A stretch of 64,000 nucleotides of DNA from a virus, in the IMG/VR virus record IMGVR_UViG_3300042887_005324, positions 32,001-96,000 of that record. One strand, given 5' to 3'. Shown piece by piece: positions 31,520 through 63,253 of this stretch (position 1 is its first letter; every line of letters starts with the position of its first letter). A program made the position numbers and the translations under genes. Below the pieces are notes generated by a model. That model was not told the origin of the DNA and ran no database searches. It saw only the letters and a list, made by a program, of their open reading frames with translations.

Positions 31520-32481
31520 TACTTTAATTTGATGTTCAAATATAACCAAAAATCATTAGATGTCACACTTATTTGAACTTTATCTGACCACTTGAATTGA
31601 ATCAAAAAGTTTCTAAAATTAGATTTAACATTCTCAATTTCATTTTCGTCAATTTTACCGTTGTCCCATTTTCCAATTCCATAATAGCCAAATGTTATAA
31701 CATCTTTGTTTATCATTGTAGACTTTTTATTATCAGATGAACCAATTGAAAAACTTTTCATAGATTCCTTGATTTTAGAAATCAAGATTAATTTGTTTAT
31801 ATCAAAATTAACTAAATTCATTTTCATGTTAACAAGTGAAGGCGAAGATAAAGTTAGTAAATAATTTACAACTCCTTTTGTTATCTTAATTTGACCAAAA
31901 GGAATTACTTGAGTATCATTCATTATACCATATTGAAAATCTAATTTAGAAGTTATACCATAATATAATTGACATTCATTTTGTGTATAATCCAAACTTG
32001 ATATGAATTGATCAAAATATTGGTATCTTGACATTACTGACTTAACATCATTTACTGGTAGTTCTATTGTTTTATATAGGAAAATAAAATGATCAGAATA
32101 AGACTTAAAATCTATATTTATATTTTTTTGACCTAAAGCCGTGATTACTTTCAGAAAACATTTGAATAGATTCTTACCACCTAATATTTGATTTGACTCT
32201 AAAAGATTCGCATCTACATAAGCTGTGATATCTGGATCTTCTTCTTTTTCAGTTCTGTTTCTATAATCTTCAATTAACTTTAATATAGTATTTTGAGTTT
32301 CTTTATCCAATAAGTTAATTGCATTTGAAATTCTAATTGTTGGATCAATGTCTTGTGTATAGTTAGAAATGATATTAAGAATGTATTCATCATTTTTAGA
32401 TAAAGATTCAATATACTCACCAATACTGTCAAAACCTTTATAATAAGATTCTTTAATATACTCTTTATACTTTTTAATCAT
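31519..32481 (-). CDS. Hypothetical protein, CTS-like N-terminus
   Basis: MIKKYKEYIKES; late motif at 32486-32495. Confidence 0.75.
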   Translation of the reverse strand: MIKKYKEYIKESYYKGFDSIGEYIESLSKNDEYILNIISNYTQDIDPTIRISNAINLLDKETQNTILKLIEDYRNRTEKEEDPDITAYVDANLLESNQILGGKNLFKCFLKVITALGQKNINIDFKSYSDHFIFLYKTIELPVNDVKSVMSRYQYFDQFISSLDYTQNECQLYYGITSKLDFQYGIMNDTQVIPFGQIKITKGVVNYLLTLSSPSLVNMKMNLVNFDINKLILISKIKESMKSFSIGSSDNKKSTMINKDVITFGYYGIGKWDNGKIDENEIENVKSNFRNFLIQFKWSDKVQISVTSNDFWLYLNIKLK

Positions 32482-57313: not shown

Positions 57314-58081
57314 ATGGGAACAACAAATAAACAAAAACAAACTGGAAGAAAAGAACTCGAAATCGAAGCTCTTGAACTTCTCAAACAAAGAGAACTAAAC
57401 TCTCAGAAAAAAGGTAGACTAACTAAACAAGAGCTTGATTCAAAAAGAATTGAATTAACTCCTAAGCAATTAGAACTATACAAAGGTATTAGACACAACA
57501 CTTTAACTGTTTGTCAAGGACCGGCTGGTTCTTCAAAAACTTTCACAGCTTGTTACACAGCTTTAGCACTTTTAGCTGATAAAAAAGTAGACCAAATTAT
57601 TTTAACTAAGCCAATTCAAGAAAGTGGTGAGAATTTAGGTTTTTTACCTGGAACTAAAGAAGAAAAAGTAGATCCATTTATGAAATCTTATAGTTCTAAC
57701 TTTGAAAAAATAATCGGTAAGCCTACATTTCAATGGATGGTATCAAATAACGAGATAGTAGTTGAGCCATTAGCTTATATGAGAGGTACAACTTACGATA
57801 ACGCAATTATGATTTTAGATGAAGCTCAAAACTGTACTATGACACAACTAATGCTTTGGGTAACAAGATTAGGTAAAGATTCTAAGGCAATAATGATGGG
57901 TGATGTTTCTCAATATGATATTAAGAAAAAAGACTCAAGATTTTTAGAATTTATAAATCTTATTAGTGATGTAGAACAAGTTCATAACTTTAGATTTGGT
58001 GTTGAGGATATAGTAAGAAATAAATTTCTTATTGATATTGTTAACAAGTATGAGAAATGGAAATTTGATAATAATATTTAA
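57314..58081 (+). CDS. phoH: PhoH family ATPase
   Basis: GPAGSSKT, LGFLPG, PLAYMRGTT, ILDEAQN, TRLG, GDVSQYD, DIVRN. Confidence 0.93.
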   Translation: MGTTNKQKQTGRKELEIEALELLKQRELNSQKKGRLTKQELDSKRIELTPKQLELYKGIRHNTLTVCQGPAGSSKTFTACYTALALLADKKVDQIILTKPIQESGENLGFLPGTKEEKVDPFMKSYSSNFEKIIGKPTFQWMVSNNEIVVEPLAYMRGTTYDNAIMILDEAQNCTMTQLMLWVTRLGKDSKAIMMGDVSQYDIKKKDSRFLEFINLISDVEQVHNFRFGVEDIVRNKFLIDIVNKYEKWKFDNNI

Positions 58082-59059
58082 TTACCAATTATCTTCTTCT
58101 ACTGATTCATTATCTTCTACTGACTCTAAACTACCATTAGCTTGAACTAAAGTGAATTGATAATTAGGTGAATTTATATCATTTCTAAGAAATCCTTTGT
58201 TTAGATCAAAATAAGGAAAGGTGTCTAAGTAAGGATAGTAATTGAAGTTATACTGTTGAAGCTTTATCTTACATTTTATTACTGTTCTTTCATTATCAAC
58301 ATCGAAAAATTGGTGTGATTTGGCTGATTGCTCCCATTTAGTGATATAACCATTTTCTTTTGCCCATTTTTTAAACAAATGAACATCAGAATCAAAAACA
58401 CTGTAGATTCTATCCATTACTTTTATATTAGATAAACCTTTAGATTGGAATCTATCATCAGACGAAATAACACTAACATCATCCCAAAGTAGAGCTCTTG
58501 ATCTAACTTTTTCTTCTCCATTTTGTTTAGTAATCAAACAAAGCATTTTGATTGGATTGTTAGAATACATTTGTAGATAACTTTGTCTTTTGGCGTATCG
58601 CATACAAGAATTCCAAAGTGTGCCAATATAATTTCCATCTGGAGCAAAATAGTTTTCATCTAAATACCACTTCTTAATTTCTTCTCCTTCTACAATTCTG
58701 AATTCTAATTCACTTGTATCAAACCAAGCTTTGTATTTATTTACAAAGTTCTCAATAGCACGGCTATCAATATTGTGTTCTAATATTAGTTTATCTGGAA
58801 TAAGTTTTTGAACAAGTCGGCCAATCTTCATTTGAGCTCTTCCTTTTGCTGTGAAAGGATCTAACTCACCATCTTTTAATTTATTTTCTGGTAAATAAGA
58901 AATTAAATCAGCCTTATCTGTTGGTGCAAGAAAGTCAATGCCTGGTTCGGTATTAATATTTAGCAATATCAAACAAATAATGTTGTGATTCATACTTAAA
59001 AAATCATAGAAACTTTTCTCTACTGTTAAGTTTCGATTTATTCTTACCATGTCTGTCAT
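58082..59059 (-). CDS. SCMRY/DRIY/YPYxDTF-domain phage protein (paralog of 1695..3950)
   Basis: WNSCMRY, SRALLW, MDRIYS, YPYLDTF. Confidence 0.75.
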   Translation of the reverse strand: MTDMVRINRNLTVEKSFYDFLSMNHNIICLILLNINTEPGIDFLAPTDKADLISYLPENKLKDGELDPFTAKGRAQMKIGRLVQKLIPDKLILEHNIDSRAIENFVNKYKAWFDTSELEFRIVEGEEIKKWYLDENYFAPDGNYIGTLWNSCMRYAKRQSYLQMYSNNPIKMLCLITKQNGEEKVRSRALLWDDVSVISSDDRFQSKGLSNIKVMDRIYSVFDSDVHLFKKWAKENGYITKWEQSAKSHQFFDVDNERTVIKCKIKLQQYNFNYYPYLDTFPYFDLNKGFLRNDINSPNYQFTLVQANGSLESVEDNESVEEDNW

Positions 59060-59079
59060 AAAAAATTAATATATATTAG

Positions 59080-59292
59080 ATGAATTTTATTTTAGAGTTT
59101 AAAAGTTTTTATAAGCCAGGTGATTTAGTATTAATAAAATACTGGTATAACCGTATGGTAACACCAGTGAGAATTGTTGAAAAAAAAGGAAATAAGTTTT
59201 TAATTTCACACGATGTTGAATCTTCTAAAATTAGAAACGCTCCTGATGAATTAATCAAAAACTCTGAAATCATATCTCCGTATAGAAATTAA
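59080..59292 (+). CDS. Small SH3/Tudor-like hypothetical protein
   Basis: MNFILEFKSFYKPGDLVLIKYW; bidirectional late motif at 59066-59078. Confidence 0.6.
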   Translation: MNFILEFKSFYKPGDLVLIKYWYNRMVTPVRIVEKKGNKFLISHDVESSKIRNAPDELIKNSEIISPYRN

Positions 59293-60407
59293 GATAAATG
59301 AAAAATAATATCATCATAGAAGGCTTGATCTTTAGGATCATTCATATCTAAGTATTGTTCTTTAATAATCTCAAAGTCTTGAACAGTCAATTTATCATCG
59401 AACAACATCTGTTTTAAAGACTCATAATAAAACTTTGTTTCTCTTTGTGAAAAACTATCAGTAATATCGTTTTCGAGTGTATCTAAATAAATCTTTTGTG
59501 GTTTATTTTTTACAGTTTTCCACTTACTCTTAGGAGTTTCATCATACCAATCATCATAGTCACGAAAGGCTCTTGAAGAAAGCTTTCTACTTGTTCCACT
59601 TCTTGAAGAAAAACGACCAGTTGGATGATAACTATCATAAGTAGAATATTCACTTTTATAATAGTTTTTATATTCTTTATTCTTAGTATCTCTTTCAGTT
59701 GGTAGATTTTCCCAATCAATTTTAACAGAAGCATTACAAAGTTTCACTAAGTGTGCTAAATCTTGATGTTCTTCGTGTGTATGTTCTTTGTAATAACCAA
59801 CAGAGATATTTGTACATTCTGAAATAACACCAGTAAACTCAGCTGAGTCAGTATAAACACCAGTATCGTCTGGTGCCATCATCATACCATTACTATTATA
59901 CTGTTTTGCTAGTTCATTTGCAAATTTATCAGAACAACATCTTTGAGAAGATTGATAAGTAATAATAGAACCAGTACCTCTTCTATCAAAAGAAATCATT
60001 CTATTATAGTTCTTAAACAAATCATCTTTAGAAGCTGCACTTGAACCAATACATCCAACTTCTTCTCCGATGAAAAAACAATAAAGACCTGGAACATTTT
60101 TCTCTATCATATAAAGTAAGACTGTCATACCAGCTTTATCGTCAGCTCCTAAAATACTCTTACCATTTGTTCTGATATAATTTTTATCAAAAACATGAGT
60201 CACATTTACTTGAGCTTTACAAGCAGTATCTAAGTGACAAGTAAAAGCTGTTTTACTTTCGCCAATTTTATAGTAATAGTTTCCGTGTTCGTCTTTGAAA
60301 TATCCTTTTGGTAGAAAAATCTCTAATTCTTCTTCATAACCATAAGGAAAGGTTTTCATCGTAAGTGCCAGAAAAGTTTCTTTAATTTTCATTAGGTTAA
60401 TATTCAT
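59289..60407 (-). CDS. M28/M20-family zinc peptidase
   Basis: CHLDT, LGADDKAG, GEEVG, SFDRRG, YTDS, NISVGYYKEHT; host-type promoter at 60412-60421. Confidence 0.85.
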   Translation of the reverse strand: MNINLMKIKETFLALTMKTFPYGYEEELEIFLPKGYFKDEHGNYYYKIGESKTAFTCHLDTACKAQVNVTHVFDKNYIRTNGKSILGADDKAGMTVLLYMIEKNVPGLYCFFIGEEVGCIGSSAASKDDLFKNYNRMISFDRRGTGSIITYQSSQRCCSDKFANELAKQYNSNGMMMAPDDTGVYTDSAEFTGVISECTNISVGYYKEHTHEEHQDLAHLVKLCNASVKIDWENLPTERDTKNKEYKNYYKSEYSTYDSYHPTGRFSSRSGTSRKLSSRAFRDYDDWYDETPKSKWKTVKNKPQKIYLDTLENDITDSFSQRETKFYYESLKQMLFDDKLTVQDFEIIKEQYLDMNDPKDQAFYDDIIFHLS

Positions 60408-60498
60408 TATATACAAATATAAGGTAAAAATCTGAAATATCCAAATTTGTCAGTATTTATTGGTTTTTTTCAGAAATTCAAATATAAACAAAAAATAT

Positions 60499-61257
60499 TT
60501 ATTTTAATTTAAATTTTAATTTTAATTCTTTTATTAAATGTGGATGAGCCCATTTTTCATCTAAAATATCAACTTCTACGACCTGTTTGTTGGGTATTAG
60601 GTTGTGTTTCAATTGATAATGATCACCTATAGATGTTGGATCAGATGGTTTATTAACTCTAAAAATACTTCCATCTTCAAGTTGAATAAATAAGGTTCCT
60701 TTTTTATACTTAAATTTGTTGCCATTATTATATTCTATTTCAACATCTTCTTTAACTTTCCAGCCTTTTACTTCATATTTTTTGGAATCAGGGTTATTAT
60801 CACTAAATAATTTATCAAGTTTGAAACTTCTATATTCCATTTGATTCATTACATATAATGGTTTTATTCTCCACTCACAAACACTATTCTTAGACAAGTG
60901 ACATTTAAGAGCCGCCTCATTTGCTTGATGTATTGAATGATATATTTTGTGATTCCAATATGTAGTCCATCCATACCATTCACCTTTATTGTCTTTCCAT
61001 CTTACTTCTAAAGTATATCCATAAGGATTTATATCATCAGCGACAGCTTGACATTTAAAATGAATTGATTCTTCTATTGCCCAATTTTTACCATTAACTG
61101 TGTAATAGTGTTTTGGAGTTACTAATTTTTCTGTGGATGTTCCGGTGATCTCTTTGAAAGAGTTGAGATCTGTGTTTGAATGTGTTTGATAACCTGAGTT
61201 GATATCTTGTCTGGTTAAATTGACAAGTTGAGAATTTTGTGAATTAATCTACATCAT
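60499..61257 (-). CDS. 252-codon hypothetical gene with an in-frame amber codon at codon 3 (ATG ATG TAG ATT...)
   Basis: Frame read by hand: no stop from 61248 to the TAA at 60499; 117 open codons lie upstream of the track's TTG start. Late motif at 61276-61284 and an A-rich leader precede ATG 61257. Confidence 0.65.
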
Positions 61258-61293
61258 ATTTTTTATTTTTATTTTTATATATTATAAAATTTG

Positions 61294-61374
61294 TGCTTCC
61301 AGGAGGGCACGATCCCCTTTCCTCTGAGGTTAGAATTCAGATTATCCCCACGGATAATTTAAGGATCTGAAAGC
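61294..61374 (-). ncRNA. Atypical tRNA-like RNA with CUA anticodon (candidate amber suppressor)
   Basis: GCTTTCA/TGGAAGC acceptor stem plus A73; 7-bp ATTATCC-GTGG-GGATAAT arm; CTGAA-TTCTAAC-CTCAG anticodon arm; 5-nt variable region; degenerate T-arm AGGGG-ATCGTGC-CCTCC. Confidence 0.55.
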
Positions 61375-61381
61375 AATTTTG

Positions 61382-61454
61382 TGCGCCCTACTGGGATCGA
61401 ACCAGTGACCCGCTGATTATGAGTCAGCCGCTCTAACCTCTGAGCTAAAAGCGC
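61382..61454 (-). tRNA. tRNA with CAT anticodon (probably Ile2/lysidine type; elongator Met not excluded), no encoded CCA
   Basis: GCGCTTT TAGCTCAGAGGTTAGAGC GGCTGA CTCATAA TCAGC GGGTC ACTGG TTCGATC CCAGT AGGGCGC A; C4-G69 fits a TilS substrate. Confidence 0.9.
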
Positions 61455-61480
61455 TAATTTTTAACAGTTGAGTTTATATT

Positions 61481-61490
61481 TACAAATATA
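61481..61490 (-). promoter_or_regulatory. Bacteroidota-type -7 promoter driving the tRNA pair
   Basis: TATATTTGTA 26 nt upstream of the tRNA 5' end. Confidence 0.55.
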
Positions 61491-61564
61491 AAAAGAGTTT
61501 GTTAATTAACAAGTTTTTTTTCATATTTTGTTCAAAACAAAGAATTATCTAACCAATATATAAA

Positions 61565-62648
61565 TTAGCTGTTCGTCAATCTTATGTCGAGTGTTCAAAG
61601 TGACACTTTTAAGAGTTTGAAAAGACTCAAAGATATAGGACTAAAATAAAAGGAATAACTATGAAAGTTAAACAAAAAAAAGGCACTAATTTGCCTAGTG
61701 CCTTTATTGTAAATCCAAAAGATAAAGGCAGAAAATCAATCAAAGGAGATAAAATCTATCTCGATAATAATCAAGAATTTGAAATCGAAATCTTTAATCC
61801 TCTAAAAGAATCTGTCTTAGCAGATATTCGTTTGAACGGTAATTCAATTTCAAAGACTGGTCTTGTAATAAAACCAGGTCAACGAGTTTACTTAGATTGT
61901 TTTGTTGATGATAGAAAGAAATTCATATTTCAGACTTATCAAGTTGACGATAATCAAGAATCTATTGATGCTACTGCTGACAATGGCTTATTAGAAGTAT
62001 TTTTCTATAAAGAACAAGCAGTTACTCTCAAAGATTGGAATGATAGATTTCATAAGATCGTGGTTCATGAATACTATCCTGTCTATACAAGATGGTATTC
62101 AAATCCATATTATATCCCGTATTATGGAACAACGCTCACCACTACAAATGTAGTAAATAGTATATACACAACAAATGGTAGTAACACACTTACCGTTGGT
62201 AATTCAAATGTTTCATATTCATCAAACTTTAATGGAAGTTTGACCTCTGGGAGTTTATCATCAAACACTGCTTATTACAATTCACCTGTAGCTGGTTCTT
62301 TTGAAACCGGTAGAGTTGAAAAAGGTGAAAAATCTAATCAGAAATTTGTAGATGTCGATATGGAATTTGAAAAGAACTACATACACCATCTTGTATATCA
62401 AATTCTTCCGAGTTCAAGAAAACCAAAGGATATTAACGATATCTCAAAGTCTAAGAAGATTATGGAGAAACTAAAATCAAATAAGCCACAATTAAATGAT
62501 ATCTTAAAAAGAGAGTCAGAAGATGTAATCGAACTAATTAAAAAACTAGCTGACTTACACTCAGCAGGTATATTAACAGATGAAGAGTTTTCAGATAAAA
62601 AGTCTGAATTACTTAGTAAAATCTAAAGACAATAAAACGAACAGCTAA
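61565..62648 (+). repeat. Long-range 12-bp perfect inverted repeat enclosing the 61661..62626 gene
   Basis: TTAGCTGTTCGT (61565-76) / ACGAACAGCTAA (62637-48), extendable by TTATGTC / GACAATAA. Confidence 0.7.
61661..62626 (+). CDS. Hypothetical protein with C-terminal SHOCT-like domain
   Basis: Beta-sandwich-like N-domain (EFEIEIFNP...NGLLEVFFYKE); IKKLADLHSAGILTDEEFSDKKSELLSKI. Confidence 0.75.
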   Translation: MKVKQKKGTNLPSAFIVNPKDKGRKSIKGDKIYLDNNQEFEIEIFNPLKESVLADIRLNGNSISKTGLVIKPGQRVYLDCFVDDRKKFIFQTYQVDDNQESIDATADNGLLEVFFYKEQAVTLKDWNDRFHKIVVHEYYPVYTRWYSNPYYIPYYGTTLTTTNVVNSIYTTNGSNTLTVGNSNVSYSSNFNGSLTSGSLSSNTAYYNSPVAGSFETGRVEKGEKSNQKFVDVDMEFEKNYIHHLVYQILPSSRKPKDINDISKSKKIMEKLKSNKPQLNDILKRESEDVIELIKKLADLHSAGILTDEEFSDKKSELLSKI

Positions 62649-62649
62649 G

Positions 62650-62678
62650 AAAAGAGACTAAAATAGTCTCTTTTTTTT
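62650..62678 (+). terminator. Intrinsic terminator
   Basis: AAAAGAGACTA-aaa-TAGTCTCTTTTTTTT. Confidence 0.8.
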
Positions 62679-62689
62679 ATATATACTAT

Positions 62690-63253
62690 ATGATTAAAAA
62701 TTGGTCAAAATTTAATGAATCCACATCTGAAGATTTCACGGAAGAAATGGCTCAAGAAATTCTTTATTTTTTTGGTGAGGACTCACAAGTATCTAAAGAT
62801 GGAGAGTTAAATTTCAATGAGATTTATAAAAAGTACAATTTAGAACATATAGTCTTTTATGAGACTAGTTATGATGAAATGAAGGAATTCACACAATATC
62901 TACTTAATAAATCCAAAGAAGATACAAATCTTAAACAGGAGCTAATTGAATTATATAATAAAATTCGGCAAAAAATGAATATGTTTCCTGAAGTTTATCA
63001 AATTGAAGATATGTATTTGAGTATAATTGAAGAATTAAATTATGATTTCTATTTAAATGTCAATTCAATAAGAAAAGAGATTGAAATTAGACTAACAAGA
63101 TGGAATGAATCAGAATTGAGTGAGTTTATAGAAACTTGTAAAATAGTTGAAGGTACACTCAAAAGATTGGAAAGTGATAAATATAAGACTAAACTAAAAT
63201 CTTGTGAATTACATAGTAGTTATACTCAATTTAAAATTGAATTAAAAGCATGA
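62690..63253 (+). CDS. Hypothetical protein, CTS-like N-terminus
   Basis: MIKNWSKFNES. Confidence 0.7.
   Translation: MIKNWSKFNESTSEDFTEEMAQEILYFFGEDSQVSKDGELNFNEIYKKYNLEHIVFYETSYDEMKEFTQYLLNKSKEDTNLKQELIELYNKIRQKMNMFPEVYQIEDMYLSIIEELNYDFYLNVNSIRKEIEIRLTRWNESELSEFIETCKIVEGTLKRLESDKYKTKLKSCELHSSYTQFKIELKA

Follow-up and report, generated by a model that had tools for sequence, protein, structure and literature searches.

Some phages carry a transfer RNA (tRNA) with a CUA anticodon and depend on it to express genes with in-frame UAG codons. In the phages that use genetic code 15, such as the Lak and crAss-like phages, dozens of mostly late genes are recoded and TAG is read as glutamine; genes with an in-frame UAG need the phage tRNA(CUA), and their expression is tied to it. 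Here we describe a locus that would resemble these systems in that dependence: a minus-strand gene that begins ATG ATG TAG, and an 81-nucleotide (nt) tRNA(CUA)-like RNA encoded directly upstream of it. Both lie in the window, a stretch of 64,000 nt (positions 32,001 to 96,000) that forms part of the 174-kb IMG/VR virus record IMGVR_UViG_3300042887_005324 (G000; 30% G+C, estimated 68% complete). The source is a freshwater phage with an otherwise normal genetic code; two 'huge phages' of 630-735 kb, LR745206 and LR756502, are distantly related to it. In contrast to the code-15 phages, this phage shows one UAG in one gene per 174 kb and uses TAG as a normal stop in its other genes; moreover, in the cassette to which the locus appears to belong, the UAG always falls within the first 10 codons and usually stands next to the tRNA. 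The principle is known from the recoded phages, and what differs here is the scale of one codon in one gene, the linkage of the tRNA in cis and the rewired core of that tRNA.

Two other comparisons concern the position of the stop. The gene of release factor 2, prfB, autoregulates through an early in-frame UGA, and infC through its AUU start. The likeness is that of an early in-frame signal in a translation-factor gene, through which the gene's own expression comes to depend on how the decoding machinery stands, the ancestral gated gene of the cassette being a putative homologue of peptidyl-tRNA hydrolase. Unlike prfB and infC, the cassette involves no frameshift, and its read-out would depend on a dedicated tRNA gene in cis; because the hydrolase has been deleted in the window, feedback through it is impossible here. 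The bar minigenes of phage lambda (AUG AUA followed by UAA or UGA) are linked to peptidyl-tRNA drop-off. They share with the cassette a very short open reading frame (ORF) ending in a stop and a functional tie to peptidyl-tRNA hydrolase. In the cassette, by contrast, only UAG serves as the stop, a conserved protein follows in the same frame, and a candidate suppressor tRNA that matches the codon is linked to the ORF.

The RNA itself can be set beside the allo-tRNAs, a class in which a long variable arm is typical. Allo-tRNAs and 8/4 tRNAs occur in phages and can be efficient amber suppressors in Escherichia coli when they carry a CUA anticodon; allo-tRNAs are tRNA-Sec-like and are grouped with tRNA-Ser (Mukai et al., Nucleic Acids Res 2017, PMC5389517). 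As in these RNAs, the acceptor/T domain of the window's RNA, 12 base pairs (bp) long, is split 8+4 rather than 7+5. Unlike them, it has no variable arm, and its short variable region pairs with nucleotides 10-12, enclosing a D-like hairpin and the anticodon arm.

The gene reads ATG ATG TAG ATT AAT from 61257, behind a recurrent motif of the phage and an A-rich leader. After the TAG it stays open for 249 codons, up to a TAA at 60501..60499, and takes in the ORF at 60499..60897; the first ATG, GTG or TTG past the TAG comes only 117 codons in. These features had been noticed in an earlier analysis of the letters alone (the sequence-only reading) and were confirmed. That analysis had also called for a check on sequencing error, and the presence of the TAG in nine contigs or runs excludes one. 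The same ATG ATG TAG and the same RNA are found in six independent contigs from other samples at 96.7-99.5% identity (L005-L010), and contigs from three further studies, dated 2019-2024 (runs X4, X6 and X15), cover both without difference. Lake metagenomes of at least three further studies contain the sequence of the locus again.

Elsewhere in the genome TAG is an ordinary stop, as had been proposed: it terminates 16 of the 175 long ORFs of the 174 kb (∼9%), including the four sites named earlier. The suggested genome-wide search for other early-TAG genes (ATG, 1-10 codons, TAG, at least 80 open codons) returned only the window gene and one frame that looks non-coding. The signature of code 15, many TAG-interrupted genes together with a TAG that is rare or absent as terminator, is not seen. 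With a single gene of the gated type in 174 kb, this is no recoded genome; on these counts whole-genome recoding was rejected.

The identity of the gene emerged from its relatives. The read-through protein has 78 of them, mostly of ∼233 amino acids (aa) and beginning MRIL... or MKLF...; the nearest, P0001, begins MMQINS, and its Q is encoded by TAG in its contig. In a contig of 75% DNA identity (L004), a CUA tRNA and the same TAATATATAAAAATAAAAA leader precede ATG AAG TAG ATT AAC, which opens a 117-codon ORF. This ORF matches the Pfam family of the peptidyl-tRNA hydrolase PTH2 at 26 bits (cut-off 23), and its TGA overlaps the ATG of the MRIL gene, which encodes the protein that we call X. The intact relative P0088 likewise reaches 26 bits against PTH2 (PF01981), above the 23-bit cut-off. 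Residues 1-31 of the window protein align with PTH2 residues 1-35 of P0088 (BLASTP, 54% identity, E 6e-8), and residues 32-252 align with residues 10-233 of the L004 downstream protein X (67% identity). A full PTH2 domain is missing from the window protein, whose catalytic domain is deleted and which has no Pfam match. A deletion of ∼284 nt has evidently removed the PTH2 domain and joined the amber-bearing start in frame to X. No full PTH2 gene was found elsewhere in the 174-kb record, which at an estimated 68% completeness leaves its absence from the whole phage unproven.

Among 140 PTH2-like loci, described below, an X homologue lies directly downstream of PTH2 in 51, and stop and start overlap in all 51; translation of X was therefore probably tied to that of the gated gene even before the fusion. 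Since the gate is now fused in frame to X, it would control X directly. No Pfam or PHROG family was found for protein X. Its AlphaFold model has a mean pLDDT of 70 and a pTM of 0.37, and Foldseek against the PDB gave nothing below E 0.06. In a wide VIA-align search with X, the matches were generic alpha/beta and SH3-like ones, the highest Z being 5.7 (58 residues), and an ESM Atlas feature search gave no usable match.

The family set comprised 140 PTH2-like loci, from 99% down to 29% identity, whose ORFs were walked upstream; 108 of the loci were distinct. In 138 of the 140, an ATG is followed at 1-9 codons by an in-frame TAG, immediately ahead of the conserved domain; two have a plain start. 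Neither TAA nor TGA occurs at the early-stop position in any of the 140, which fits a CUA anticodon that reads UAG alone. All 108 distinct loci have an in-frame ATG before the TAG with no stop between, against 0/108 in each other frame. The TAG is followed by an A in 96 of the distinct loci, by a G in the other 12 and never by a pyrimidine; a 3' purine favours amber suppression in E. coli. The cultured Tenacibaculum phage pT24 (NC_049383) is among the carriers, its PTH2-like gene reading ATG AAA TAG ATA (L173:1448-1460, ∼194084).

Of the 108 distinct loci, 58 have a CUA tRNA or tRNA-like RNA no more than 2 kb to either side of the gene. Each of these RNAs shares the strand of the gene; 55 are upstream of it and 30 are within 100 nt. 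In pT24 a canonical tRNA(CUA) is found at 191520-191594, 2.5 kb upstream of the PTH2-like gene, and in a 385-kb relative (95% complete) the CUA tRNA is 127 kb away. A search of three phage records with a 10-nt anticodon-loop pattern gave matches at the control rate. The most diverged loci have an ordinary cloverleaf tRNA(CUA) of 70-75 nt, and CUA is kept in every architectural form of the tRNA. The sequence-only reading had proposed that, in an otherwise standard-code phage, a dedicated CUA tRNA permits its neighbour to be translated, with co-conservation as the test. The TAG in 138/140 relatives and the same-strand CUA tRNA within 2 kb in 58/108 support such a role; its further suggestion of a special residue inserted at position 3 found no support.

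The window has the early in-frame TAG after ATG and the same-strand CUA tRNA of these loci. Its gated gene does not encode a PTH2-like enzyme, the gate being fused to X. On this comparison, the locus is best explained as a derived copy of a widespread phage cassette composed of a tRNA(CUA), a PTH2-like gene with an early UAG, and protein X. Our literature searches found no publication on a module of PTH2, amber codon and suppressor tRNA.

About 25 distinct relatives, which have no tRNA nearby, carry a further amber codon in a leader ORF of the form MM-UAG-I-(N/L)-T-Y...(R)-P-P-stop. In these relatives, including L115, L134, L146, L148, L038, L028, L139 and L040, the ORF begins to be seen ∼130 nt ahead of where PTH2 starts; LR745206, a huge phage already published, is among the carriers (at 338 kb in its genome; L184:1341-1500). 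Just before the PTH2 start stands a long hairpin (GACCUCC...GGAGGU) with a U run behind it, and the final CCT CCN TAA of the leader forms part of its 5' arm. The PTH2 gene behind the hairpin bears its own UAG, and the leader peptide is conserved after the leader UAG; one locus, L029, violates the frame rule of the leader ORF. Leader and hairpin look like a device for transcription attenuation that would depend on amber read-through.

We then turn to the RNA, which had been described as an 81-nt molecule with a 7-bp acceptor stem and a hairpin centred on CUA. Its length, its CUA hairpin and its place at 61374..61294 stand; the acceptor stem has 8 bp, not 7. A class model (R1) and an alignment (A3) were made from 25 distinct relatives of 79-83 nt, and the window's RNA scores 71.2 bits against the model, within the range of members that stand beside an intact PTH2. 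In the class, 90.4% of cells are paired, versus 63.7% in shuffles and 36-44% when partners are slid, and the covariation score is 0.77 versus 0.25 in shuffles. The acceptor stem is 100% paired in the 25 relatives, with seven of its eight pairs changed on both sides and a discriminator A; pair 8-75 is GC in 18 sequences, GU in 6 and AU in 1. The T stem (4 bp) is also 100% paired, giving an acceptor/T branch of 12 bp split 8/4. The anticodon stem has 5 bp, and in the 7-nt loop UUCUAAC the bases U33, C34, U35 and A36 are invariant and A37 nearly so.

The core departs from the cloverleaf. A GG-containing hairpin takes the place of the D arm, and nucleotides 10-12 pair with the three nucleotides after the anticodon stem (UCC/GGA in the window; GGU/ACC, AUC/GAU, AAC/GUU, ACC/GGU and GCA/UGC elsewhere in the class). 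This helix is 85% paired, and all three of its pairs are changed on both sides, in 23 such cells. An alternative, cloverleaf-like D stem (10-12 with 28-30), available in the window and part of the class, is weaker, with 73% paired and 6 double-changed cells. The variable region between the anticodon and T stems measures 5-6 nt and forms no long variable arm. In the T loop of the window's subgroup, A54...U58 replaces U54...A58, as it does in forms of 65-66 nt. The window's RNA is a member of a covariation-supported class that tRNA finders miss: ARAGORN made no call at its default setting, and its call at the 60% threshold was misfolded with an implausible anticodon loop, while the Rfam tRNA model RF00005 gave no match even at E up to 10. 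The invariant U33/C34/U35/A36 and the fully paired 8+4 domain suggest that the RNA behaves like a decoder; its amino-acid identity could not be inferred from sequence. The 65-66-nt CUA RNAs, seen in L041, L065, L049, L061 and L123, have a much reduced D region, some of them with a GGGATCATTCCCC T arm, and may be either a third architecture of the suppressor or decaying copies.

The best reading of the locus, and one that we consider reasonably probable, is suppression-gated translation. The 81-nt RNA would be made together with the neighbouring tRNA-Met from a host-type promoter and processed like a tRNA, and with its rewired core it would work as an amber suppressor. The gated gene would start AUG AUG UAG AUU behind its own phage-type promoter motif. 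In the absence of the suppressor, a dipeptide would be released at codon 3 and nothing useful would be made; in the presence of charged tRNA(CUA), the UAG would be read, helped by the following A, and the full protein would be produced. The tRNA and the UAG would form a translational gate that in this lineage controls X directly. Within this scheme the anatomy, the fusion, the conservation, the RNA covariation and the purifying selection are observed; we infer transcription, charging, decoding and the residue inserted.

We favour suppression-gated translation because the stop is solely TAG, the in-frame ATG is obligatory, a purine always comes next, and an invariant CUA anticodon is carried by a tRNA on the same strand. 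The leader peptide with its own UAG in ∼25 distinct relatives is a further point for it. Codons 4-117 lack any canonical start, but their homology is to the N-terminal half of X, which is conserved, and they are intact in seven variants; translation must therefore start upstream of codon 32, which requires either read-through of the UAG or a non-canonical start. Several observations weigh on the other side. In roughly every second relative a CUA tRNA is missing from the surrounding 2 kb; the 155-kb record of one relative yielded none at all, which at 83% completeness says little. An efficient suppressor would also extend the phage genes that end in TAG (∼9%) as well as host genes, and the ATT that follows the TAG in 81% of loci would fit a non-AUG start too. 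As for the 81-nt RNA, ARAGORN and the Rfam tRNA model reject it; a mismatch closes its anticodon loop (31:39, A.C in the window and mismatched in 18 of 25 sequences); it has no canonical D stem (10-13 with 22-25); and the window's T loop is AUCGUGC rather than UUCRANY.

These features of the RNA lead to an alternative that we hold to be unlikely, namely that it is a tRNA mimic serving as a regulator, as a substrate or decoy of PTH2 or as a processing signal, the UAG being read only when host release factor 1 is limiting or by a host suppressor. A non-canonical architecture that standard tRNA models reject would suit a mimic, and the two competing pairings of nucleotides 10-12 could make the RNA a switch; in phage T4, small stable RNAs that resemble tRNAs are encoded next to the tRNA genes. 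However, a fully canonical tRNA(CUA) is found in the same position in the most diverged relatives and in pT24. The atypical forms keep U33, CUA, A37, the 12-bp acceptor/T domain and the GG loop, all of them decoding features, and the A54...U58 combination replaces U54...A58 in the T loops of several tRNA forms.

The codon after the TAG bears on another alternative, a start-stop minigene, which seems quite improbable. Here AUG AUG UAG would be a two-codon mini-ORF, synthesis of the protein would begin with re-initiation or with AUU, codon 4, and the tRNA-like RNA would have another role. Among the 108 distinct loci this codon is ATT in 87 and GTA, GTT or ATA in 15 more, as a minigene would allow, but in 6 it is AAC or ACA, neither of which can start translation. 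Bacteria are known to use AUU as a start in rare cases such as infC, and a two-codon ORF before a peptidyl-tRNA hydrolase gene recalls minigene-induced peptidyl-tRNA drop-off. Any stop would serve such a minigene, yet TAG is used in 138/138 and TAA or TGA never. In addition, the ORF before the TAG varies from 1 to 9 codons without a conserved last sense codon, and the invariant CUA anticodon and the same-strand tRNA linkage would be left unexplained.

It is very unlikely that the deletion of PTH2 inactivated the locus and left the frame, the TAG and the RNA as decaying leftovers. Such decay might be expected of a gene that has lost the PTH2 catalytic domain and in which X has no start codon of its own, but the 252-codon frame is intact in seven variants whose pairwise synonymous divergence (dS) reaches 0.13, and the ratio of nonsynonymous to synonymous divergence (dN/dS) between the window and the other fused variants is 0.06-0.2. 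Within codons 4-117, 7 of 10 variable sites are third positions and none is a first position (dN/dS 0.08-0.24). The fused variants agree in the 81-nt RNA except at a single loop base, and in the leader except for one 2-nt indel, and the same sequence recurs in the lake metagenomes of 2019-2024 mentioned above. Purifying selection thus maintains the fused gene, the gate and the tRNA. The only clear RNA run (X20) yielded two short contigs of 95-99% likeness, on 61130-61251 and 61187-61217, with unmatched ends; these probably come from a relative and are therefore not evidence of transcription of the window locus. Finally, genome-wide or block-wise reassignment of TAG, as in code 15, is extremely unlikely: the gene caller of the protein database did read TAG as Q on short contigs of the window gene, but it called long contigs of close relatives with table 11, and beside the 16 TAG-terminated ORFs no other gene in 174 kb needs read-through.

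On the minus strand, the order of elements runs from a host-type promoter-like box through tRNA-Met, the 81-nt RNA and the leader to ATG ATG TAG ATT AAT (Table 1). The two RNA genes are 6 nt apart, and the spacer between the 81-nt RNA and the ATG is 36 nt long and holds TAATATATA and the A-rich leader. The box also precedes the CUA tRNA in relatives such as L013, and we infer that it is the host-type promoter of a two-RNA unit made up of tRNA-Met and the CUA RNA. The motif TAATATATA sits between tRNA and ATG in many relatives too. The whole genome has 71 AATATATA sites, a number not above the shuffled expectation, and 54 of them stand ahead of an ORF start at distances that peak sharply at 12-14 nt and at 25-36 nt. 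AATATATA is a positioned, promoter-like motif, possibly one of middle or late genes.

Table 1. Positions of the amber-gated locus and adjacent ORFs in the window
Feature	Position	Strand	Basis or remark
Promoter-like box, TTG ... TATATTTG	61483..61515	-	TAnnTTTG match at 61490; ∼30 nt upstream of tRNA-Met; Bacteroidota-style
tRNA-Met(CAU), canonical	61381..61454	-	ARAGORN call; Rfam RF00005 66.5 bits
Atypical tRNA(CUA)-like RNA, 81 nt	61294..61374	-	Fold; alignment pair counts; class model R1 71.2 bits
Anticodon CUA, flanked by U33 and A37	61331..61333	-	Alignment of 25 relatives
TAATATATA, recurrent promoter-like motif of the phage	61276..61284	-	26 nt before ATG
ATG ATG, start and second codon	61252..61257	-	Sequence; in-frame ATG 1-9 codons before TAG in 108/108 distinct relatives
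In-frame TAG, codon 3, then ATT	61249..61251	-	Sequence; same in L005-L010 and runs X4, X6, X15
Codons 4-31, PTH2-like N-terminal remnant	61165..61248	-	BLASTP versus P0088 residues 1-35
Protein X (residues 32-252) and TAA stop	60499..61164	-	67% identity to gene after PTH2 in L004
Neighbour ORFs, ordinary large-phage cargo, outside the module	58082-59059; 59289-60416; 57314-58081	-; -; +	

The neighbouring genes encode a PhoH-like ATPase, a homologue of M28-family peptidases (E 4e-5 in Pfam) and a protein of 325 aa whose BVU_2266-like match is weak. In LR745206 and LR756502 the M28-peptidase and SHOCT-domain genes are adjacent (L001 and L002 compared with window 59000-62700), and the 1.25-kb block of tRNA-Met, tRNA(CUA) and gated gene is therefore an insertion. 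As LR745206 has its own amber-gated PTH2 elsewhere, at 338 kb, the position of the cassette moves between genomes. In close relatives of 97% identity (L007 at 1464-2150, L008 and L009), the SHOCT-domain gene is separated from tRNA-Met by a gene for an HNH-endonuclease-like protein of 225-228 aa. This gene is missing from the window at ∼61560-61660, a presence/absence polymorphism beside the tRNA pair, and is a probable homing endonuclease. In another genome (G001, ∼60.4-61.0 kb, minus strand; L168:700-1300) two odd tRNA-like genes lie beside a tRNA-Met: one has a 6-nt anticodon loop (ARAGORN anticodon 'tt'), and the other has a tRNA-like start and end around an insert of ∼200 nt.

Genes with an early TAG are mis-annotated by gene callers: the pT24 copy (gp293) is annotated in GenBank from an inner ATG ∼45 codons downstream, and the window gene appears as a 132-aa fragment. 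If the 81-nt RNA decodes, functional tRNAs would be known in a wider range of shapes, and the RNA could be considered as a scaffold for an orthogonal suppressor.

Phage suppressor tRNAs are now discussed as a means of recoding whole blocks of genes, and our results suggest a minimal form with one stop, one tRNA and one gene in phages of otherwise standard code. Large phages that infect freshwater and marine bacteria have kept the cassette although they have diverged widely, the cultured pT24 among them. The window offers a natural experiment in which the usual enzyme has been lost, the gate and the tRNA have been retained, and the partner gene would now be controlled. We tentatively raise the possibility that tRNA(CUA) and early UAG make up a portable, self-contained switch, served by a working tRNA with a rewired core, which outlived the loss of PTH2 and now gates X alone. 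If so, the gate would be selected for its effect on expression and not merely for feedback through the hydrolase.

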